NCBI GenBank assembly: GCA_038087875.1
Contig: CM075988.1
Span: 11,658,001 to 11,718,000 of the forward strand
Origin: Malacoraja senta
Lineage: Eukaryota
Length of the DNA: 60,000 nt
Direction: 5' to 3'
The position numbers and the translations under genes were made by a program. Under the pieces are notes generated by a model, which did not search any database, was not told the DNA's origin, and saw only the letters and a program-made list of their open reading frames with translations. Positions 6,735-42,697 of this stretch are shown one piece after another (the stretch's first letter is position 1; each line of letters opens with the position of its first letter).

Positions 6735-7914
6735 TCAACAGTTGGAACTCAGTTGGAACCAAGAAGGCAACTTTTCTGAAAAAATTGGTGTGAACCAGCA
6801 TCTGCAGTTCCTTCCTACACGTCATCTGAAAACTTGTTGGATTCAGTTCACTTTAGAGCGAGGGTGAGACTTTGACCTATAATTACTGATGTTCTAAAAT
6901 AATTCCTGCTGCATGTTTTTGTTTCCATATCAGTCACAGATTTTGATACCACTTATCTGCAAGAGTTCCTTCTTTTAATTCCCAATATCAGAGGAGCACA
7001 ACTTACTGCACTTATTTGACATTTTCATTGCACACACCATCCATTTTGCCACACTCTCAGTGAGAGTGCCAATTAGTGTTGAATTATGGGGTAGTTTGTA
7101 CGCTGGGCTCATGCCCCTAGGAGCTGGCAACATTCCTAGATCTGGAAACACTGTTATTCATTTGAAATCCTATTAAATCCATTTCATGGCAAGATAATGA
7201 CAAGACCTATTGATTTAATTTATTGTGCTGTACAGATAAGAAACTGCTGGAATAGCCGCCTTCACCAGAGAGTGGAATGAGTGAGGAATATGTGATTGTT
7301 TCTTCGATTATTGTTACTATAAATGTGGCCAGATATGTTGATAGCACACATATTAAGTTTTGCCTGATTTAGGCATTTTATCAGTTCAGCAAGGCATATT
7401 ATTTGTAGCGCAAGCCAAGATAACCAGAAATGAACAGTGATGTTGAAAATGGGAGCCGGGATAAGATTAATTGTTTAAGTGTGAATCCATATCAGCACAA
7501 CTGCAGTGAGATGAATAATTTTATTCTGCATTAGGAGTTCTATGATTTTGTGCTCTATCAGATTCAGCCCAGTACGTGCAGTTATTAAGAGATTAATAAT
7601 GGAATATAACGAGTGCAAATTACAATAAGTTTCAAGTAGTGGATCAGAAAAAAAGGAAGTATATAACTGAAGAAACTTGATAATATTAAGAGTTTCCTTT
7701 TTATATGTGTTCTTGGAAAATAGGTACAGCTGTTATCTGAATGGTGTCAAGTAGGGAAAAGAGGAAGTACAATGAGATATGGGTGTCCTTGTTCAACAGT
7801 CACTGAAAGAAAGCATGCAGGTACAGCAGGCAGTGAAGAAAGCTAATGGCATGGTACACAAAAATGCTGGAGAAACTCAGCGGGTGCAGCAGCATCTATG
7901 GAGCGAAGGAAATA

Positions 7915-7948
7915 GGTAACGTTTCGGGCCGAAACCCTTCTTCAGACT
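7915..7948 (-). ncRNA. Minimal hammerhead ribozyme motif in Penelope pLTR
   Basis: Minus RNA: GU-CUGAAGA-A-GGGU(UUCG)GCCC-GAAAC-GUU-AC; core, stem II and loopless palindromic stem III are visible. Confidence 0.7.
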
Positions 7949-8062
7949 GATAGGGGGTGGGGAGAAGAAAGGAAAAAAGGAAAAAGGCGGAGGAGGAGCC
8001 CGAGGGCTGGGGGAGGGGAGGAGACAACCAGAGGGCTGATGAAGGGGAGGGGACAGCAAGGG

Positions 8063-8599
8063 CTAGCAGAATTGGGAGAATTCAATGTTCAAACCCCCAG
8101 GATGTAGACTGCCCAAGCGGAATATGAGGTGCATTTCCTCCAATTTACGGTGTTGCTCGCTGTGGCCATGGAGGAGACCCAGGACAGAGAGGTCAGATAC
8201 GGAATGGGAGGGGGAGTTGAAGTGCTGAGCCACCGGGAGTTCAGGTTGGTTATTGCGGACCGACCGGAGGTGTTCGGCGAAACGATCGCCAAGCCTCCGC
8301 TTGGTCTCACCGATGTAGATCAGCTGGCATCTAGAGCAGCGAATGCAATAGATGAGGTTGGAGGAGATGCAGGTGAACCTCTGTCGCACCTGGAACGACT
8401 GCTTGGGTCCTTGAATGGAGTGGAGGGGGGAGGTGAAGGGACAAGTGTTGCATCTCTTGCGGTTGCAAGGGAAAGTACCAGGGGAGGGGGTGGTATGGGA
8501 GGGAAGGGAAGAATTGACAAGGGAGTTACGGAGGGAGCGGTCTTTGCGGAAGGCAGACATGGGGGGGAGATGGGAAGATGTGGCGAGTGGTGGGGTCAC
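8063..8599 (-). CDS. Penelope-like GIY-YIG endonuclease, partial (RT absent)
   Basis: PCNRKRCNTC linker, NLIYCIRCSRCQLIYIGETKRRLGDRFAEH, VAQHFN, RKLEE..IFRLGSLHPGGLN; no internal stops. Confidence 0.9.
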   Translation of the reverse strand: MTPPLATSSHLPPMSAFRKDRSLRNSLVNSSLPSHTTPSPGTFPCNRKRCNTCPFTSPLHSIQGPKQSFQVRQRFTCISSNLIYCIRCSRCQLIYIGETKRRLGDRFAEHLRSVRNNQPELPVAQHFNSPSHSVSDLSVLGLLHGHSEQHRKLEEMHLIFRLGSLHPGGLNIEFSQFC

Positions 8600-8852
8600 G
8601 TTGGAGGTGGCGAAACTGACGGAGGTGTTTTGCCAAAGCTAATGGCATGTTGGCCTTCATAACAAGAGTAGTTGAGAATAGGAGCAAATAACTCCTTCAC
8701 CAGTTGTACAGGGCCCTAGAGAGCCCACACCTGGAGTATATTGGGCAGTTTTGGTCTCCAAGTTTGAGGAAGGACATCCTTACTATTGAGGGAGTGCAGC
8801 ATTGGTTCACAAGGTTAATTCCCGGGATGGCGAGTCTGTCATATGTTGATAG

Positions 8853-8970
8853 CAGGCACGGAAATCATTATCAAAACATGGAGCGGACCGGGGGACAGGG
8901 GGGACACAATTTCTTGGCGGCCGCGCACACACACGCACATGCACACGCACATGCACATGCACACGCACGC

Positions 8971-9008
<38 letters not shown>

Positions 9009-9810
9009 CTTCGGAGACTTCAGCTGTGGGACCTATGCACGGTAATTAGGGTGCCGGCAGTTGCTGAAAAAATCGCGTAAGGCCCACGGCCAGCGCTAAA
9101 TGTAGCTCAACTCTGCCTGTCTCGCCGGGTTAACCTACAGCCCTGCCTGGACTGACGGGCTTCTCCGCGCTGGCTGTAAACCTGGGCCATCATTGGCAGG
9201 CAGAGTTGACAGGCAGAGTTGAGATGGGTTTAGTTCTCCTTCTCTGCGCTGGGTGTGGGCACCGCTTCCATCTGACTCCTGACATCTCTGGCCACCCCCG
9301 GGCATTGGGGAGGGTGGGGGCACTCGGGTAGGGACGGGGTGGTCCAGTGGCGGTGCGGCAGCGATTCCGGTGTCGGAGACCCAGGATCGATTCTGGCTGC
9401 AGATGAGGCGCAGGTCTGTCTCCATGGCTGCCGAGAGTTTTTCGCTTGACCTGGGCATGCAAATCAAGTTCTGCTCTGATCTTTGCCTCATGGACATCTC
9501 CCTCCTCCAATCACTGCGCTCTATCCTCAGTCCCACCCCCCCTCCTTCCACCACTGACCGACACTTCCCTCCTCCAATCATCGCGCTGAATTATCATGGT
9601 CCCGCCCCCATTGCCTGCTAACTGACGTCTATCTCGCCCAATCGGCGCCCTCGATCATCAGTCCCACCCCCACTGTCTCGCGGAAAGCGGAGATTTCACC
9701 GGGTTTTAAAATCCGGATTATAAAAAATGGGGGGATCGTCCCCCACCTCTCAAAACGGGGGGGGGGGGGGGGACGTGTTCCCCCTGACCCCTCCGGTATT
9801 TCCGCCCCTG
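8853..9810. mobile_element. Non-autonomous hAT DNA transposon (958 bp)
   Basis: TIRs CAGGCACGGAAAT / rc CAGGGGCGGAAAT; exact 8-bp TSD GTTGATAG at 8845-8852 and 9811-9818; GC-rich interior. Confidence 0.9.
8925..9005. repeat. Compound (CA)n/(CACG)n microsatellite inside the hAT element
   Basis: Direct reading. Confidence 0.95.
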
Positions 9811-10254
9811 GTTGATAGAATGGAGCGACTGGGCTTGTATACACTGGAATTTAGAAGGATGAGAGGGAATCTTATTGAAACATATAAGATTATTAAGGGA
9901 TTGGACAGGCTAGAGGCAGGAAACATGTTCCCAATGTTGGGGAAGTGCAGAACCAGGAGCCACACTTTAAGAATAAGGGGTAGGCCATTTAGAATGGAGA
10001 TGAGGAAAATCTTTTTCACGCAGAGAGTTGTTAATCTGTGGAATTCTCTGCCTCAGAAGGCAGTGGAGGCCAATTCTCCGAATGCTTTCAAGAGAGAGTA
10101 AGACAGAGCTCTTAAAGATTGCAGAGTCAAAGGTTATGGGGAGAAGTCAGGAATGGGGTAGTGATTGTAGATGATCTGCCATGATCACAGTGAATGGTGG
10201 TGCTGGCTCGCAGGGCCGAATGGTCTATTCCTGCACCTATTGTATATTGTCTAT

Positions 10255-10425
10255 TGTTACTCCAGCATGTTGTGTATTTTTTTTTGTATACCAGCAATTG
10301 CAGTCTGAAGAAGGGTTCCAATCCAAAACGTCACCTATCCATGTTTGTCCAGGGTTGCAGTCTGACTTGCTGAGTTACTCCAGAACTTTGTCTTTTTGGG
10401 GGGTAAATCAGCATCTGCATTTCTT
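10255..10425 (+). mobile_element. Penelope-derived short element, partial tandem
   Basis: A 3'-end fragment is followed by CAGTCTGAAGAAGGG...AAAACGTCACCTATCC...GAGTTACTCCAG. Confidence 0.75.
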
Positions 10426-10584
10426 TATTTCTGCTGTTGTTCTTGTCTACAGACAACGCTATTTATTGCAGTTTTTGCTACTCTTTCGTAATTGTTCCCA
10501 AGAAGATGTGATTTCATGCCCTTCTGCGCTGCATATTTAATGCCCTTCACTACAGTATGTCATGGAAAGTCTACTGTTATCTGG

Positions 10585-10750
10585 ACATACAGGTTTGTAG
10601 TCTAATTGGCTTGGTAAAATTGTAAATGGTCCTTATTATGTATAGGATGGTGTGAGTGTGCGAGGATCGCTGGTCGGTGTGGACTCAATGGGCCGAAGGG
10701 CCTGTTTCCTCTCTGTATCTCTGAACTAAACTAAATTAAACTAAACTAAA
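10585..10750 (+). mobile_element. V-SINE 3' half
   Basis: GGCCGAAGGGCCTGTTTCC...(AAACT)n tail. Confidence 0.85.
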
Positions 10751-11964
10751 TGTTCTTGGATGCAAAGGCACAATAAACACTTTGAGCAGGCACATCTTCT
10801 TGAGAACAATTACGAAAGAGGAGCAAAAACTGAATTTGCAGACAAAGCTCACATCCCGCATTTAAATAAAAAAGTAGTTTCTTGATGTTTGTGTCTGGCA
10901 GCGTGACGTTTTAGCACCCAAACCTGCGATACAAAATTCTAATACCACACTTAGACATTTAAAAAATAACACATCTTTTTGGTTTTCACACATTATGTTT
11001 GGTGTTTAAGTACAATTTCTTATTTAGCTCAACTGTAATTTTAGGGCAAAATGATTAAATGCAGACGCTGGCATGTTAAACTGGTTTGTCGGTAATCTGC
11101 ATGTGCAAATCGATTTTCTAGTATAATTTCACCTGTCATCTGCAATACCAGAGCAGCACTTTGCAACTGCTTGGTGGAATCTGAAGGAACATTTGATGCA
11201 ACATTAAACGCCACACAGTTTTTAATCTTTTCACAGCAGATCAGGACATTAAATGATACCGCCTCATTCTAGCATTTTCCACAAAAAGGAAAACATGAAC
11301 TGCAGTCTTCAAATATTCAATTGCTATTAATGTTTTAAGAGCTTCAGTGCTTAATTTTTTAAATGGAGGAGGAGATTGTTCATCAGTTCATCACTTCAGT
11401 AGTTCTCTACCCTCTGTTGTGGGTGATCAAAGAAACTGCTGAGCTTTGTTGAGTCCCTTGATATTTCTTTTAATTGATGCAATAAGAGAGATCCACCTCT
11501 ACCATGCCAAGGAATTAAATGGAGGCAGGAGCATTGAAAAGGGGGAAGTCAAGTGAAGGACATGACCACAGGTAGAATTCTTCAACTCGCTTATTGTCTA
11601 CAACCCTTTGCAGTACAGAAGGCAAAGGTCCTACTACTATTTTATTATAATTTCAGATGCTCGACGTAAACTGTTCTCCTTTTTCCACTTTTATGAAATG
11701 TCACTGCCCTACCTTGATCAGAGCGCAACTTACTGGATCCTGGAAAATACTCCCCAGGATCTTTAGTCCTGACTGGATTCTATTGGCACTTCGGTATTGA
11801 GACATAGTTTTAAAACGGTGAAATTGAACAATTTGTTTCAGTTTCTATGCAATCACGTAATCTGAATTGTATTGCAATAATTTAGTTCAGTACGTTAATT
11901 TATTAACTCAGAAAATGCTGATTATTATTATAATAGCCAGTACATTATGCAAATATATACATCA

Positions 11965-12530
11965 CTGGACCAAGTGCAGACCTGTTAAGTCTGCTCCCAC
12001 AACGGTGTGCGTTGGGGAGCTGATGAAGCTGTTTTTGAAATGAGGCCCTCCCCCTGACATCACGGGAAGGTGGTGGAGTATTCTGTTCCACTGTACCGTT
12101 GGTGGGGAGGGGGGCATTGTGACATCACTGGAAGCTGGTTTTAAAAGGTGATTTTGCTTTTTTTGAAACTTTAATCATGAATAACCCATGGGGGTTGGGG
12201 GTGAGGGGTGTGAATAACCCGTGGGGGGGGGCGGAGGGTGTGGCACTCGGCAGCTTGAGAGCCCATTGTGATTGTTGCATTGTGACATCATCAGTGGAAA
12301 GTCCTGGAAAAAGTCTGTGTGTGAGAACCGTTCTTTGCCTTTTTTAAAAACTTGAATCATCAATAACTTGTAAAAATATAGGATGAAATCTTAAGTGAAT
12401 CTGATTACTGGGTGGAGGGGAAAAATGTGAGTCAGAATATGTAAAAATGTAAGCGCTAGTGTGCAGAGTTTTGACGAAGGGAGTAAAACACATGGAAACA
12501 GGCACACACATGCACGCACACATACATATG
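11965..12530 (-). mobile_element. Probable non-autonomous Helitron-like element
   Basis: Minus 3' end: hairpin GCAGAC-7nt-GTCTGC (11976-11994) a few nt from a degenerate CTAG (CCAG) terminus; CA-microsatellite near the other end; no TSD seen. Confidence 0.45.
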
Positions 12531-12800
12531 TCTCTTGTCCAGAGTGGGGCAATTGAGGGGCAGAAGGCATAGGTTTAAAGTGAAGGGGAAAAGATTTTAT
12601 AGGAATCTGAGGGGGACATTTTTCACACAAAGGGTGTATGGAACAAGCTGTCAGAGGAGGTAGTAGAGGCAGGGACTATCCCAACATTTAAGAAACAGTT
12701 ATGAAACATGGATAGGACAGGTTTGGAGAGATATGGACCAAACGTGGGAAGGTGGGACGAGTATAGCTGGACATGTTGTCCAGTGTGGGCAAGTTAAACT
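12530..12800 (+). mobile_element. CR1 3' fragment
   Basis: GGCATAGGTTTAAAGTG...TTTTCACACAAAGGGTG...GGGCAAGTT; same family as 39590-40593. Confidence 0.85.
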
Positions 12801-13853
12801 CACTAAACATTTGCTTAAAGGAAAGGAAAACAAGAACAAAAGGAAGCAGAGTAGAAACCAACTTAATTTTGAGATGAAATAACTCATAATCAATTAATAG
12901 CTATATTTGTAATATTGAAAGAATTGATAATTTGGAAATAAAATTAGATATTTGAAGGAATCATAATGAAAATAATAGTATTAGTAGCAAACTATGTATT
13001 CTATGTGCGTATGAGGAAAGCACTGTATTTGGTAGAAGATTCAAATTGAGTAAATATTTTTTAGGGTTAGCAATTTAAATGAGCATGCCCATTATTTCCT
13101 TTTTGTTGACAGCTCAAAGCACCACTCGGGACAAATAACAGCTTGGGAAAGCACATAAAAATAGGAGATCACGCACAATAACTTTACAGTGCTTAAACAG
13201 ATCTGATCAATACTAGAAACATAACAAATCATAGCTTATCTTCAACCTTAGCACCACCTTCTTGCACTAACCCCATATCTCTTGATTTCTCTACTAGCGA
13301 AACATTCTTCATTCAATCTTCACAAGCTTGTTCCAAAGATTCACGCTCTCTTGGTGAATTTTATTTTGGCCATTTCAGTCTTTTCTGTCCCTGACTATTA
13401 AAAAAAAAAAAAAAAGTTTACCTTCCTATTATTTTGCCAACAAAATGAATGGCACCTTTTTAGCATCATGATCCATCTGAGTTTATTCATTGAAGTAACC
13501 TGTCTATATGACTTAATTAGATAGGAAAAGCATAGAGCACTGCAGGCCTATTTATTTTGAGACCATTATCCCACTTTATAGAATTTCGACAGAGAAAATG
13601 TTATCCCTGCCTCTATCTAGTGAAGTCTGTCAAGAATTGTCTATGTTTCAATATTACCTTATTCTTTTAAATTCTGGAGAATATGGACCCAGTTTACTTC
13701 ATCTCTCCTCAAAGAACAATCCCACAGCCAGGGGACTTAATCTAGAAAATCTCCATTACATTCCCACTTTTGCAAATATCCTTCGCTTGGCAGGGAGCTC
13801 AAACACTAAATTCCAGGCGTGGGTCTAATCAGGGCCTGTATAGCTACAGCAAG

Positions 13854-14820
13854 TCAAGTCAAGTCACATTTATTTATATAGCACATTTAAAAAACAACTC
13901 TCGTTGGCCAAAGTGCTTTACATTTGTTATAAGAATAATATAAACAAACAAACTACATACATTTATACATATAGCCCTCGCTCAGAGGACGTCAAGAAAC
14001 GCTTGGGAGTATAGATACGTTTTTAGTCTTGACTTAAAGGAGTCGATGGAGGGGGCAGTTCTGATGGGAAGGGGGATGGTGTTCCACAGTCTAGGAGCTG
14101 CAACCGCAAAGGCGCGTTCGCCCCTGAGCTTATGCCTAGACCGCGGGTTATTCAGCAGCCCCAAGTCGACCGATCTGAGGGGCCTGGAGGTGGAGTGGTG
14201 GGTGAGAAGACTTTTAATGTAGGTGGGGGCAAGCCCATTGAGGACTTTGTAGACATAGAGGAGGATCTTGAAATGTATACGGAACCGCACAGGGAGCCAG
14301 TGGAGAGAGGCGAGGATCGGGGTGATGTGGTCCCTTTTTCGGGTGCCCGTCAGGAGTCTCGCTGCGGCGTTTTGGACCAGTTGCAGGCGGGACAGGGAAG
14401 ATTGGCTGATGCCAGTGTAAAGGGAGTTGCAGTAATCTAGGCGGGAGGAGATGAATGTGTGGATGATCTTTTCGAGGTCATGAAAGTGGAGGAATTGTTT
14501 TATTTTAGCTATCGTCCGAAGCTGAAAGAAGCTAGCTTTTACCATGGCATTGACTTGTTTGTCAAATTTCAGTGCTGAGTCAAATATCACGCCAAGGTTT
14601 TTGACGTGAGGTTTGAGTAGTGGGGTAAGGCTTCCAAGGCTGCCTGCTATCATTTTGTTTGAGTCCGAGGGGCCGAGAAGGAAGACCTCAGACTTACTCT
14701 CGTTTAGTTGGAGGAAGTTCTGGGCCATCCAACACTTTATATCCTCGAGGCAGTGGGTAAGGTTAAGCAGATTTGATTGGTTTTGGGGCTTCAGGGGGAG
14801 ATAGAGTTGTGTATCGTCTG
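13854..14820 (-). mobile_element. Young 5'-truncated L2-clade LINE
   Basis: L2-type tail TGTAAAGCACTTTGG...TGCTATATAAATAAA(TTGAC)n; TSD AGCAAG at 13848-13853 and 14821-14826. Confidence 0.9.
13982..14818 (-). CDS. L2 ORF2 C-terminal portion (from the RT DDTQLY motif), uninterrupted
   Basis: DDTQLY, WMAQNFLQLNESK, VKNLGVIFDS, SRLDYCNSL, LQLVQNAAAR, HITPILASLHWLPV; the ORF-track N-terminus lies in flanking DNA. Confidence 0.9.
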   Translation of the reverse strand, partial: DDTQLYLPLKPQNQSNLLNLTHCLEDIKCWMAQNFLQLNESKSEVFLLGPSDSNKMIAGSLGSLTPLLKPHVKNLGVIFDSALKFDKQVNAMVKASFFQLRTIAKIKQFLHFHDLEKIIHTFISSRLDYCNSLYTGISQSSLSRLQLVQNAAARLLTGTRKRDHITPILASLHWLPVRFRIHFKILLYVYKVLNGLAPTYIKSLLTHHSTSRPLRSVDLGLLNNPRSRHKLRGERAFAVAAPRLWNTIPLPIRTAPSIDSFKSRLKTYLYSQAFLDVL

Positions 14821-22970: not shown

Positions 22971-25669
22971 AGGCTAATAAAGTGGCCATCCTATTTTACC
23001 ACATTTTTCTTTCATTTTTTGTTATTTTATCTAGATGAAAAGGCAAGGGCATGGCAGATGATGCTTCATTAACTACGAAGTCACATTATATCCTAATTAC
23101 TGGAACCCACTCAGTGATGACAGTTGGAGAATGGCAATCTCTTCATTTTGTGGCTAAACAGCTCACAATGTCTCTCCCTCTGTAATGCACGCCGGTTCTA
23201 TTTGTTCGAAGCTGGTTTTGTTGGCTAAGGACTAAATATGGTGGTTTTTACGTATGAATGGTTCCTTTTGTTTTGACACTTGGCCTTTGAAGACCATTAT
23301 GCTGGCACTGATATGTGTTAATGCATGTTTCACATGAGCTCCTTAAAGGCCAACATTCCTTAATTGCTGTTTTTACAGTGGAAGCACTAGGGGTTTGGCT
23401 ATTAAGAACATATAATTGCAGTTATTTTTAATTATTGATTTCCAGCAGAATAATACACCTGTGAAGCTGCCGTCGTTGTATCTCACATTGCGGATGGACT
23501 AAGTATAATGTTGACTGGAGCTGCAGATTTTAATTTTCATTCAGGCAGACTTAATGGGCTGCTGTACAAATTGTCAGGCATTCCACTTGATATTAGTTAG
23601 AAGAGGAAAGTGATGAAAGGGTGCTTTACTGACCATTCGTACTGTTTGAGCTTCACATTATCAAGTTGGATCGAGCCCCCTTCAAAATTAATCAAATGCA
23701 TGGCAAACCTTTTCAGGTTCAGGATGGCAATATAGCCTTGTGCTTGGGGAATTCTTTTGAAAAGGTTGGACTGTGATCAAAATTCACTTCCAACATTACA
23801 GCAAATTTCCAATCTACTGCGAATCCTTCAGTAAAATGGGCCCCTACAGATTAATGCAGATGTGCATTATATCTCGAGAATGACTATCTCAAGGAAGAGG
23901 AATAGCTTCATTAATTGTTCCAATCTCTTGTGGAAAAGAATGATTAGTGAATTTGAGGAAGCCGACTATATTATTACTGATGAGGTTATTCTTATCATTG
24001 CCGTAATGGATAGGGAAGACAGATTGCATCTCAAACCATCATTAACTCCTGTTCACTTTTGCCTGTTAAATGCCACTGCAATGATTGTCATCAATTTTAA
24101 AGGCATCATTTGGAAGATTAATTGACAAAGGTCCCCATGAAGCTTATCTATTTAATCTTAGCACATTTTTACTCCTTAAAAATTCAAGGTTAAAGTCTTT
24201 GAACAGTGTGTTGAGGGCAGCTAAGGATGTGTAAATACTGATTTTTTTACCCCTCCCCACTACTGCATATATGAATATCGATTGTTTTCCACTTGAGTGG
24301 AATGTGCCTCTGCTTATTTTTGGGTCACGTGCCACCACTCTGAAAATTCCACCAGGCACTTCCAGTGATGAATTGTGTCTGTGGCAGTCATGCATTTCTT
24401 GAATCGAATGATAATCCATGCAATGTGACCCCAGGGATATTCCTTCAGCTGCCTTCAACATGCATCTGTTCTGAGACACGATCAGACGAACAGGTCTTTA
24501 ATAGCACTGATGGTGTGCAGCTATTCAATTTAAAGGTCCCCCCCCCCCCCCCCAAGCAGGTCCCAGACTAGCACTGGGATGTCAACTGGTGTGTGCTTCC
24601 TCCAAATCCATTGTTACCTGCACTCCCTCATATCATTACTCATAACCCAGTTCACAAGCTTTGGCTATCAACCATCCCTACTAGTATAGTGGTCTCTCAA
24701 TCCCATTCTCCAATCCTGTTAATCTCTCAAACCCTAGAGTTATGTCACTCCTCAGACTTCAATCCACAATACCCTTCATCACCTAATCCTTGCTGCATGA
24801 ACCCCTCCCCAGGCCCAAAGGAATTGTCCTAATTATTTGTCCTGGGCTTGTTAAACAATTTTATTGAACCCAATGTCCAGATTCAGTTATCTAATCACTA
24901 AGCACCAAGTTTTTTCCCCAAATACCCTGGCTTTACTGCCAGATAACGTGCTGTGTTTTTTTCTTGTTAAACTTGGCAATTACACAGCGCATAAAATAAA
25001 CAATACTATTCCGTTATCCCTGATGTCTTCAGCTCTCATTCTCTGTGCCTAAGGGAGTGCGACTCCTTGAGAGTGTTGGTGAACCTCGAGGACTATGTTC
25101 TTTATAAAAGTAACAACAACAGCAGAAGTGTTTAAGTTTAGCAAAATAATAGTGAAAGGTTTGAACCCAAGTAAGTTTTCTAAACTCAAATGAACTGATT
25201 TGTAGCGGTTTCTGCCACGTCTGATTTACCATTTTTAGTTTGCATTTTGTCACATGGGCATCAACCATGAGTAAAGTTGAGTTTATTTTACGTGTGATCT
25301 TTCTCTAAAAATGGCATAAAAATTTCCGATCAATACAACAGTCCTATTAATGTTCCACATCATAGTTTTGTACTTGAATAACATCAGAGGGCCACCAGCT
25401 TGAAAACAGGCCATCTGCAATCTACAGTGTTAAGAGTCACAAAAATATTTCTTATTCTCTCTCGGTTGATATTTCTCTTTCATTTTCTTCCTCTTCTGGA
25501 ATTACAGGGCCTACATCTGCTTCTATTGTCTGTTGTTTACGTTTTTTTAGGTTTAGAGATACAGCACGGAAACGGGTCCTTCGACCCACCAAGTCCACAC
25601 TGACCAGCAATCCCCGCAAATTTACACTGTCCAACACACACGAGGGACAATTTTTACATTTACCAAGCC

Positions 25670-25809
25670 TTCTTCTTCTTGCGTATGGCATGCACAGCCT
25701 AAAGTTGTAGGACAACTTATTCTATTTGATCTTATTTGATTATTCACGCCGGGTTGATTACATTTGTCGAAACAGGGTGGACCATGTGAAGGTTGCAATC
25801 TTCCACCCC
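25670..25809 (-). mobile_element. 140-bp non-autonomous retroposon with a 5' HDV-like ribozyme and (GAA)n tail
   Basis: TSD ATTTACCAAGCC at 25658-25669 and 25810-25821; 3' end GCCATACGCAAGAAGAAGAA; no Pol III boxes. Confidence 0.85.
25756..25809 (-). ncRNA. Minimal HDV-like self-cleaving ribozyme (54 nt)
   Basis: P1 GGGGUGG/CCACCCU with G1.U wobble; J1/2 AA; P2 GAUUGCA/UGUAAUC; P3 ACC/GGU; L3 UUCACAU; P1.1 G; mini-P4 U(UUCG)A; J4/2 C-AAA. Confidence 0.8.
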
Positions 25810-27309
25810 ATTTACCAAGCCAATTTACCGACATACCTGTATGTCTTTAGAGTGTGGGAGGAAACCGAAGATCTCGGAGAAAACCCACGCAGGTCACAGG
25901 GAGAACGTACAAACTCCGCACAGACTGCTCCCGCAGTCGGGATGTAACCCGGGTCTCCAGCACTGCAAGCGCTGCAAGGCAGCAACTCTAACGCTGCGCC
26001 ACTGCGTCCCCACATGTTCTTGTGCTCTGAAGCAAATTGCACTCTTCCTTGCATTGTCGTGCACATACTGGTGGTCCTCACTGGTGACTCCATGCCACGT
26101 GCAGTGGAGGTCTAGTTAAATAGTGAAAAAATAAAGTCAATGCTTTGCTGAACTTGTGTATGCATGTACTTTTGACGGTAATGACTGGCCTGCAGCCAGA
26201 TACAGATGGAGTGGCTTTTTTTTAATCTTGCCTGGTCATGCTGATATTATTTATAGCATCCCATTACTGCCCAAAGGAGCCCACTAACGACTGAGGCCTG
26301 GCTCATTTGTATGATTCTGTGTCACTCCGTGTGGTTTCTTTACCAGTAACCCATCAGGGAAACTAATTGTTACATTAAAATAGATGGGAGTAATTGCCGA
26401 AGCTCAAGTGTTGGGGAAATTGTTCGGCCGGCAGAGGTTTCTCTGCTGGTTATCAATGCAGACTTTATGAATTGATAGATAATGTGAAGCTGCAATAGGT
26501 CATGTGTTTCTGACAAGGGAATGAAATGTTGGCTCAAGCACCTGAAATACATTTATTACATTACAGTGGCTGCCATAAATGTGACTACATCTAGCCACCC
26601 TATAAATTGAAGTTACTTCCTCCCTGTGGTCTGTCAACATCAAAATTCATGAACAGTATAGTTTATGCTCAGAGAAGCTATAATCTAAGAACATAAAGGC
26701 AAGGGAAAATAGGAAATGAATAGGATGTGCATCAGATTTCCCTTAGAATTTTGTATTTTAGCTACTTCAGTTACATTAAGTATTAGCTGCAATATCTGTA
26801 ACCACTTTCAAGACTTCCAGTGAAGTCTTTGGACTTTCTTCTTCAAGTGATACACTTCAGAGCTATAACTACTTGGAAATTACTATGTTCGTACCCACTC
26901 GATTCCACCCACACCCAGGACACAATAAAATGTTCTACATGGTTGTGAACAGGAGAACAGCATGGTCCTGGGGAAGTGGCGGGGTGCAGGAGGGGAGGGG
27001 AGGGGAGGGGGTGGGGGCGGCAGAATTGGAAGCGGTGAAGAGGAGATCAGTGTTCCACACTGAAATATGCAAGACCAGAAATCCATGCATATGTTTCTTG
27101 CCATAAAAACCTGCCCGTGTAGTTCAGTTCAATTTAATTTAGTTTATTGTAATGTGTAGTGAGGTACAGTGAAAAGCCTTATTTCATGTCATTTCCGGGG
27201 CAAAGCCAGTCTGGAGATTTTCAGGGAAGATTATATCTGGCTGATTCAAAGAATGTCAATTGTTGAGATCCACAAATGAACAAAGTTCTTGTGGAACTTG
27301 ACTAAAGGC

Positions 27310-41551: not shown

Positions 41552-42697
41552 CATAGAAACATAGAAACATGGAAAAATAAGTGCAGGAGTAGGCCATTCA
41601 GACCTTAGAGCCAGCACCGCCATTAAATATGATCATGGCTAATCATCTAAAATCAGTACCCTGTTCCTACATTTTTCCTATATCCCTTGATTCCTTTAGT
41701 CCTAAGAGCTAAATATAACTCTCTCTTGAAAACATCCAATGAATTGGCCTCCACTGCCTTCTATGGCAGAGAATTCCACAGATTCACAATTCTCTAGGTA
41801 AAGAAGTTTCTCCTCATCTCAGTTCTAAAGGGCCTACCCCTTATTCTTAAACTGTGACCACTGGTTCTGGACTCCCCCAACATTGGGAACATTTTTCCTG
41901 CATCTAAATTCCAGTGAATACAAGCCCAGTCGACCCATTGTTTCATCATACGTCAGTCCCGCCATCCCGGGAATTAACCTTGTGAACCTACGCTGCACTC
42001 CCTCAATAGCAATAATGTCCTTCCTCAAATTAGGAGACCAATTGCACACAATGCTCCAGGTGCGGTCTCACCAGGGCCCTGTACAACTGCAGTAGGACCT
42101 CCTTGCTCCTAAACTTAAATTGTCTCGCAATGAAGGCCAATATGACATTATCTTTCTTCACTGCCTGCTGTACCTGCATGCTTACTTTCAGTGACTGATG
42201 TGCAAAGACACCATTGCACCTCCCCTTTTCGTTATCTGATACCATTCAGATAATCATTTGCCTTCCTGTTCTTGCCACCAAAGTAGATAACCTCACATTA
42301 TCCACATACTGCATCTGCCATGCATCTGCCCACTCATCCAACCTATTCAAGTCACCCTGCAGCCTCAAAGCATCCTCATCACAGCGCACACTGCCACCCA
42401 GCTTTGTGTCATCCGCAAACTTGGAGATGTCACATTTAATTCCCTCATCTAAATCATTAATATATACATATTGTAAATAACTGGGGTCCCAGCACCGAGC
42501 CTTGCTGCACCCCACTAGTCATTGACTGTCATTCTGAAAAGGACCAGTTAATTCCTACTCTTTGCTTCCTGTGTGCCAACCAGTACTCTATCGATGCCAA
42601 TACCTACCCCAATACCATGTGCTCTAATTTTGCACACTAATCTCTTTCAAAGGCTATTTCACCACGTCCACTGGCTCTCCCTTATCCATTCTACTTG
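41552..42697 (-). mobile_element. 5'-truncated CR1 LINE
   Basis: YINDLDEGIKCDISKFADDTKLGG and LYRALVRPHLE; (CATAGAAA)n tail. Confidence 0.95.

Follow-up and report, generated by a model that had tools for sequence, protein, structure and literature searches.

A high-copy retroposon family of Malacoraja senta headed by a candidate P4-less HDV-like ribozyme of the CPEB3 type

[quoted passage not shown] We refer to the retroposon as family 1. Homology to other genomic copies delimits the whole element at 25670..25809, and a 12-bp target-site duplication, ATTTACCAAGCC read directly, lies at its 3' or tail side (25658..25669) and, in identical letters, against its first nucleotide, G1 (25810..25821). 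The coordinates and duplication claimed in the original prediction are thus borne out by direct reading.

The candidate ribozyme head comprises the 5'-most 54 nt (25756..25809, minus strand) and is supported by pair counts, shuffles, a scan of the window and a covariance model of related heads that we call R1. P1, which begins with a G1.U pair, joins nt 1-7 to nt 30-36 (25803-25809 with 25774-25780), and is followed by J1/2 (25801-25802). P2 joins nt 10-16 to nt 48-54 (25794-25800 with 25756-25762), P3 joins nt 17-19 to nt 27-29 (25791-25793 with 25781-25783), and the 7-nt loop L3 spans 25784-25790. A G that could form P1.1 lies at 25773, a linker takes the place of P4 at 25767-25772, and J4/2 (25763-25766) consists of the putative catalytic C (nt 44, at 25766) and then AAA before the 3' strand of P2. 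The arrangement of P1, P2, P3, L3 and J4/2 previously proposed for the minus-strand RNA holds letter by letter. The UUCG hairpin proposed as a reduced P4 does not, as it is not conserved, and a second family described below has UUCC at this place. From the aligned letters, P4 in family 1 is better described as deleted, with a 6-nt linker left. Downstream of the head are a non-coding body that is conserved across copies (25681..25755) and an (AAG)n tail (25670..25680), which is 11 nt long in the window copy and varies in length among copies.

Family 1 is abundant in the window's own assembly (1.94 Gb). The 140-bp query returned 2,509 first-look candidates, and all 40 that were scored are 94-100% identical to it over at least 137 of 140 nt, so the expected membership in a repeat family holds. 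Copies of full length share 94-95% identity with the window copy. The exact 27-mer at the 3' end (with one Y) has 1,414 + 1,361 = 2,775 matches in the genome, and its reversed control has 0 + 0; the exact 54-nt head of one copy (L005) occurs 186 times, with no occurrence of the control. We found no second family-1 copy within the 60-kb window.

The 5' end of these copies is fixed. All 30 fetched loci are homologous from nt 1 onward, directly beside the target duplication; the first bases are GGGG in 25 of them and carry an altered first or second base in 5, and two pairs among the 30 are segmental duplicates. Among 70 unique copies, 59 begin GGGGTGG[A/G], and the remainder have point changes or belong to the few 5'-truncated copies. 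Conservation in the alignment of these 70 copies rises from about 30% to more than 90% exactly at nt 1. When loci were found by the 3' half alone, 26 of 30 reach nt 1-3, three are 5'-truncated (at nt 26, 34 and 37) and one has an internal deletion. Contigs from four runs of other organisms (7,567-13,962 pieces per run, representing DNA copies and not RNA) give the same picture, as loose contig ends with random continuation cluster at 25809/25810 and at 25669-25672 in all four runs. The 30 loci and the contig ends therefore agree on G1 when weighed against the possibility of variable ends. Duplications of 10-15 bp flank 51 of 68 copies and are absent from 17, by a finder that tolerates one mismatch, and tails before the duplication measure 4 to 26 nt.

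The consensus clarifies which letters of the window copy reflect decay. Variable sites among the 70 copies are mostly CpGs, plus an A/G difference at nt 8, and within-family covariation is uninformative for this reason. At nt 25, the L3 guanine, 45 of 70 copies have G and 19 have A; in the contigs the corresponding change (T>C on the plus strand) accounts for 88-92% of the depth in the four runs. At nt 32, 43 of 70 copies carry G, so that P1 contains U5.G in place of the U5-A of the window copy, and at nt 50, where 63 of 70 carry C, G-C is formed instead of the window copy's G.U. The original prediction had proposed CpG decay in both L3 and J4/2. It stands for L3, with G at nt 25, and holds in part for J4/2: CGAA, which is found in the LINE and in older heads, is one of the source states, but nt 45 in family 1 is a mixture of G, A and U. 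The window copy itself has A at 25785, where the family has G, so that the CpG at the conserved guanine of L3 has decayed. Because this guanine is the base of a trans G.U pair described as critical in folding of the HDV ribozyme (PMC3386971), the window copy is probably inactive.

The predicted fold exceeds what chance would give. We used a descriptor with a P1 of 6-7 bp from nt 1, a J1/2 of 0-3 nt, a P2 of 6-8 bp, a P3 of 3 bp and an L3 of 6-8 nt. The arrangement of P1, P2 and P3 anchored at nt 1 arose in 13 of 200,000 shuffles of a 70-nt head, and never in 200,000 together with the G1.U pair and a C-N-A-A sequence. In a scan of both strands of the window (120,000 positions), 102 start positions fit the helices alone, many of them in a simple repeat, and 25809 on the minus strand is the sole position that also fits the core letters.

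Related heads occur elsewhere in the same genome. When ~330 kb of sampled genome was scanned for further ends with an (AAG)n tail, a second short family emerged, family 2, whose members are 166-168 bp long and likewise end in (AAG)n (L032:2462-2627, minus strand, and copies L091-L110). There are at least 1,104 first-look candidates, and 40 of 40 scored are 91-100% identical. Nineteen of the 21 copies read begin GGGGTCAA, the other two having an altered first base, and 17 of 21 are flanked by duplications of 10-14 bp. The head has P1 GGGGUC/GGCCCU, P2 GGAAAGA/UCUUUCC and P3 GCG/CGC; compared with family 1 it has the same J1/2 (AA) and the same L3, and its P4-less linker differs by one letter. 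The 3' region of family 2 is strongly structured (z -3.64). An ATG with an open frame in copy L032 was considered as a coding signal and rejected, as the family consensus has ACG.

A pattern search that kept the conserved L3 and the 3' letters of P1, and did not require the P4-less linker, gave 163 matches compared with 64 for the reversed control, and recurrent strings among them led to a LINE and to a further family, family 4. The LINE (L111-L114) is represented by a copy of 3,107 bp on contig C1, from L111:82 through L118:2558, that begins at G1, ends in an (AAG)3 tail and is flanked by an 11-bp duplication. Its coding region is one reading frame in pieces, with two frame changes, and matches RVT_1 (E 1.6e-33), Exo_endo_phos (E 4.4e-5) and Exo_endo_phos_2 (E 0.011). 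The 3' untranslated region (UTR) is ~25 nt, and the head has all elements of an HDV-like fold, its P4 being 8 bp long. The 5' 220 nt of the LINE have only 20 candidates in the genome, which are 97-100% identical. Among 14 matches that reach nt 219-220, eight start at nt 1, three at nt 3-9 and three at nt 40-58.

RTE elements are ~3.2 kb in length, have a single open reading frame (ORF) encoding an N-terminal AP-endonuclease and a reverse transcriptase (RT), lack ORF1, and have a very short 3' UTR that ends in short repeats. The LINE has these features, and it looks RTE-like by its architecture (3.1 kb, a single frame, endonuclease plus RT, and a short 3' UTR). An ESM Atlas search with its RT returned generic RVT_1 clusters, which carry no clade or host information.

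Family 4 (L115-L117, L122, L123) is an old, low-copy relative with 11 candidates, a long P4 and CUAA in J4/2. Truncation or decay falls within the first 10 nt in three out of five copies read; the idea that this family lacks the 5' strand of P1 was dropped, as L122 and L123 carry it. One locus, L117, is a short, internally deleted derivative of family 4, in the form of a plain deletion, with an (AAG)n tail. Families 5 and 6 (L124-L133) have older, decayed heads, most of which are followed by ACCAC. In family 5 the P4 letters are those of the Rfam CPEB3 consensus and L3 is UUCUCGU, and family 6 has P2 and P4 letters of its own. One of these loci, L125, resembles a ~260-bp element with an A-rich tail.

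The helices of these heads covary. Our alignment has nine rows, one to three for each of family 1 (including the window copy), the LINE and families 2 and 4. When the P1/P2/P3/P4 structure is drawn on it, 97.2% of 181 cells are paired, compared with 34-46% when the structure is slid along the alignment, and 14 of 25 pairs are changed on both sides, compared with 0-2 in the slid controls. By helix, such changes affect 3 of 7 pairs in P1, 6 of 7 in P2, 2 of 3 in P3 and 3 of 8 in P4, while pairing is 100% in P1, 98.4% in P2 and 100% in P3. The first P1 pair is G.U in all six rows with letters there. None of 500 shuffles reached the observed percent paired, the number of covarying pairs, the number of covarying cells or the covariation score, and 120 of 500 reached the observed number of further pair types. 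An eight-row alignment gives the same picture. The unpaired core, by which we mean the L3 letters, C44, A46 and A47, is invariant across families in intact copies, and nt 45 is G, A, U or C between families. The L3 letters include the U...C.G that HDV-like ribozymes conserve, as in the consensus of the Rfam model RF00622 treated below. P4 is absent in families 1 and 2, which have a gap of 24-25 columns, and is present in the LINE, family 4 and the older heads. The conserved pairing of P1, P2 and P3 that had been anticipated for related heads is therefore kept and covarying.

Covariance models place these heads with the CPEB3 ribozyme, Rfam model RF00622 (cut-off 35 bits). LINE heads score 59.7-64.2 bits with E down to 4e-16, those of family 4 score 28-59.7 bits, and the older heads score 43-51 bits. 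Family-2 heads reach 27-30 bits (E 4e-5 to 4e-4), and one copy of family-2 type reaches 40.4 bits. No Rfam ribozyme family other than RF00622 matched the heads of the LINE, family 2 or family 4. Genome-wide, RF00622 has 51 matches at E<=0.001, of which 39 exceed the cut-off, among 59 scored of ~100,000 first-look candidates, and it has matches in 0 of 14 control genomes. Families 5 and 6 came to light among the new places matched in this search. The LINE head and RF00622 have identical letters at 47 of the 67 model positions, among them 18 consecutive nt through P3 and L3, and 10 further positions pair differently.

Family 1 can be connected to this group through R1, which we built from 11 heads of the LINE and families 2, 4, 5 and 6, with none from family 1; it models P1, P3 and P4, and its E-values are rough. 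The top match of R1 in the 60-kb window is 25751-25809 on the minus strand, although it is weak (17.8 bits, E 0.019). When R1 was applied to 25 kb around eight better-kept family-1 copies, it placed all eight heads precisely on nt 1-54 (16.4-23.8 bits), and these (E 2.8e-4 to 0.017) are the only matches with E<=1 in the 25 kb. Comparison of the heads shows that the family-1 head arose when that of the LINE lost P4, and that compensatory changes followed.

Several observations weigh against this reading. No Rfam model matches the window copy at E<=10 in a search of 25400-26100, and in six loci with intact-CpG copies there is likewise no family-1 match at E<=10, with 16 unrelated weak matches. 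A search of the whole window at the gathering score gave no matches at all. The R1 runner-up in the window, at 42450-42514 on the minus strand (16.9 bits, E 0.03), is barely below the window copy; it has no core letters in common with the heads and is probably noise. The covariation comes from four to six lineages in one genome, on a structure drawn from the same sequences, and the single C-G pair that P1.1 allows, between nt 22 and nt 37, never varies. The 3' region offers little further structure: the AAGTTGT/ACAACTT hairpin of the original prediction (25702-25718) is recovered as a 7-bp predicted hairpin, but the 3' 66 nt as a whole fold no better than shuffles (z -0.24). The remaining points concern the LINE. 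By BLAST, it has no significant similarity to family 1 beyond the head, the best match being 15 nt at the tail (E 8.1). As the LINE shares no significant body or 3' sequence with family 1, the driver cannot be pinned to this particular LINE. A LINE with the helix letters of family 1 itself is also lacking among the matches listed (100 of the 163 pattern matches).

The mechanism that we propose is of a known kind. A source copy would be transcribed within a longer RNA, in which the head, judging from its fold and from the 5' ends of the copies, would form a nested double pseudoknot and cut itself directly 5' of G1. Cleavage would yield an RNA that starts at G1, and the copies, which start there, provide indirect support for this step. 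A LINE of the ribozyme-headed, (AAG)n-tailed lineage would then reverse-transcribe this RNA from its tail at a staggered nick. The expected outcome corresponds to features that are observed, namely duplications of 10-15 bp, tails of variable length and occasional 5' truncation. Classical short interspersed nuclear elements (SINEs) have a head derived from a small RNA and an internal RNA polymerase III (Pol III) promoter; the head of family 1 is instead homologous to the 5' ribozyme of a LINE.

The most serious alternative, although we consider it unlikely, is that the head is a ribozyme relic. In this case the P4-less RNA no longer cleaves, the G1 end is set by an internal promoter, and the fold persists in some other function, for example in stabilizing the RNA or in letting the LINE protein recognize it. 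The model for such an arrangement is Pr77 of L1Tc, which is both promoter and ribozyme, and a dual head of this type is documented for L1Tc and NARTc in the cited portions of two studies (PMC3383444, PMC4035085). The absence of P4, and of any match between family 1 and Rfam ribozyme models, would fit a relic. However, the letters of P1, P2 and P3 in family 1 are unlike those of every other head, yet all of them pair, which means that the RNA fold remained under selection once P4 had gone. The consensus also keeps all core letters needed for catalysis, and exact copies of one such head number 186. Nor does the loss of P4 argue against activity, because P4-less HDV-like ribozymes are reported to cleave in vitro (PMC10879173). 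As for a promoter, ARAGORN found no tRNA-like genes in 25300-26200, and hence no tRNA-like Pol III head, although this is a weak test for Pol III, and A and B boxes were not searched for with a dedicated matrix.

A ribozyme-headed retroposon still requires a driver, and the original prediction called for a LINE partner. A LINE that has a head of this kind and ends in (AAG)n is indeed present, and is RTE-like by architecture only. The stronger expectation, of a LINE that shares both ends with family 1, is not borne out by this LINE in sequence, since what the two have in common is the architecture and core of the head plus the last few bases and the tail. Other searches for a partner were also unproductive: the 5' half or the 3' half of family 1 alone returned only copies of the short family itself, and a query for the conserved core with A/T after L3 gave 161 matches, all 100 of those listed being mutated family-1 or family-2 copies.

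It is therefore conceivable that an unrelated LINE, which recognizes the 3' hairpin and tail of family 1, is the driver, and that the ribozyme-headed LINE donated just the head. The lack of a significant match outside the head is what this alternative predicts, and chimeras that consist of the head joined to foreign sequence (described below) demonstrate that the head can be so joined. However, families 1 and 2, the LINE and L117 share an ending of a few CG-containing bases and then (AAG)n, their duplications are of like size (10-15 bp in family 1, 10-14 bp in family 2 and 11 bp in the LINE), and no other type of (AAG)n-tailed element was seen in the ~330 kb of sampled genome. We regard a separate driver as improbable, more so than a relic head, and favor mobilization of family 1 by a LINE of the ribozyme-headed lineage. 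Finally, a chance resemblance in an ordinary SINE head can be dismissed almost entirely, given that helices plus core arise in none of the 200,000 shuffles and at a single site in 120,000 scanned positions, that the helices covary across families, and that relatives exceed the Rfam cut-off.

Insertion sites were compared for the two short families. In family 1, T directly precedes the duplication in 38 of 51 cases, and T is at -11 in 28 of 51; in family 2, C directly precedes it in 10 of 17, and the duplication starts with A in 12 of 17. RTE insertions have been described as having T at position 1 of the target-site duplication and a run of T near -10 (PMC6007223), a signature that the family-1 bias recalls only loosely. 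Flanks of L001, L013, L022, L028 and L104 place insertions of both short families inside copies of one abundant host repeat, which the original prediction labelled a V-SINE, and this sharing probably reflects the abundance of that repeat.

Variant forms of both the LINE and family 1 are also found. At three loci (L119:41-140, L120:39-140 and L121, minus strand, 300-402) the LINE head plus ~25 nt is followed by unrelated sequence, and all three break near the same point, just before the LINE start codon. These may be head-capture chimeras that show how new short families arise. Contig C8 has a partial LINE 5' end, beside which, at 937520-937815, nt 2-33 of the LINE head is matched several times in tandem at a spacing of ~26 nt. 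Within family 1, L044:746-870 (minus strand) is an old, 78%-identical copy belonging to a subfamily with a different central segment, and the same subfamily is seen in three of the four contig runs (X3, X6 and X7) as a shared loose-end consensus at 25733 (agreement 0.66-0.73). In the remaining run, X9, 104 contigs cease to match behind 25731 and continue randomly, which may mark a shorter or 5'-truncated form that is common in that organism.

Ribozyme-headed LINEs are known among R2, R4/Dong, L1Tc and RTE elements (PMC3774820), and short derivatives of such LINEs include NARTc, RIME and SIDER (PMC4035085) and the short internally deleted elements (SIDEs) of R2 (PMC3414825). The closest parallel may be drawn with L1Tc/ingi and its relatives in trypanosomatids, where, as here, an HDV-like ribozyme heads both a LINE and its short non-coding derivatives (PMC4035085, PMC3383444), a cut just upstream defines the RNA's 5' end (as we propose for family 1), and the short forms outnumber the LINE. 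However, that system belongs to protists and uses a 77-nt head that doubles as a promoter, whereas the present one is in an animal genome and uses a CPEB3-type head. NARTc-type short forms are also plain internal deletions that share sequence with their LINE, whereas little is shared here beyond the head and tail.

SIDEs of R2 resemble family 1 in being non-autonomous and in keeping a 5' HDV-like ribozyme, and they also keep the R2 3' end that is needed for reverse transcription (PMC3414825). With the one LINE that we compared, family 1 shares the architecture and core of the 5' head, and at the 3' end just the tail and a few bases. R2 and its SIDEs are site-specific in 28S rDNA and are co-transcribed with rRNA, whereas family 1 is dispersed at varied sites with duplications of 10-15 bp. 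RTE-clade LINEs have a ribozyme at the 5' end of a promoter-less, single-ORF element of ~3 kb, and the 5' end of their RNA is the cleavage site (PMC3774820, PMC7761336); our LINE is placed beside them by architecture only.

Minimal P4-less HDV-like ribozymes, including the theta ribozymes of gut phages, share with the family-1 head a predicted nested double pseudoknot of ~50-55 nt (PMC10879173). According to the same source, these P4-less ribozymes are ~99% confined to bacteriophages, where they lie beside tRNA genes, whereas the form described here is at the 5' end of an animal retroposon. Also unlike the phage forms, its origin by loss of P4 from a full-length LINE ribozyme is visible within the same genome.

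The CPEB3 ribozyme is described as a single intronic copy that is conserved in mammals (PMC10919898, PMC13635239), whereas the motif here heads multi-copy retroposons. Its model scores LINE heads above the cut-off and gives the window's own family no score. The sections of three papers that concern this ribozyme (PMC10919898, PMC8256844, PMC13635239) treat it as mammal-conserved and do not discuss its origin. Our literature search found no report of CPEB3-type ribozymes at the 5' ends of LINEs or SINEs, although an earlier description is possible. We offer, as a tentative proposal that could well prove wrong, that the intronic CPEB3 ribozyme was not invented in mammals but exapted from a 5' head belonging to this LINE lineage, and that CPEB3-type ribozymes are processing signals of retrotransposons that a living animal genome still uses, at the head of one young LINE, of several families now extinct, and of short elements in thousands of copies that have a naturally P4-less version of 52-54 nt.

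This system differs from the known ones in having an animal host, short families of very high copy number, a natural P4-less head and CPEB3-type sequence. In an animal, a high-copy retroposon seems to rely on a naturally P4-less ribozyme of HDV-like fold, a form that one study reports almost exclusively from phages (PMC10879173). One genome holds the full series, from the P4-bearing head of the LINE to minimal heads with compensatory changes, and so provides a natural map of what the fold tolerates. If the retrotransposon ancestry is true, the origin of the CPEB3 ribozyme would become directly testable.

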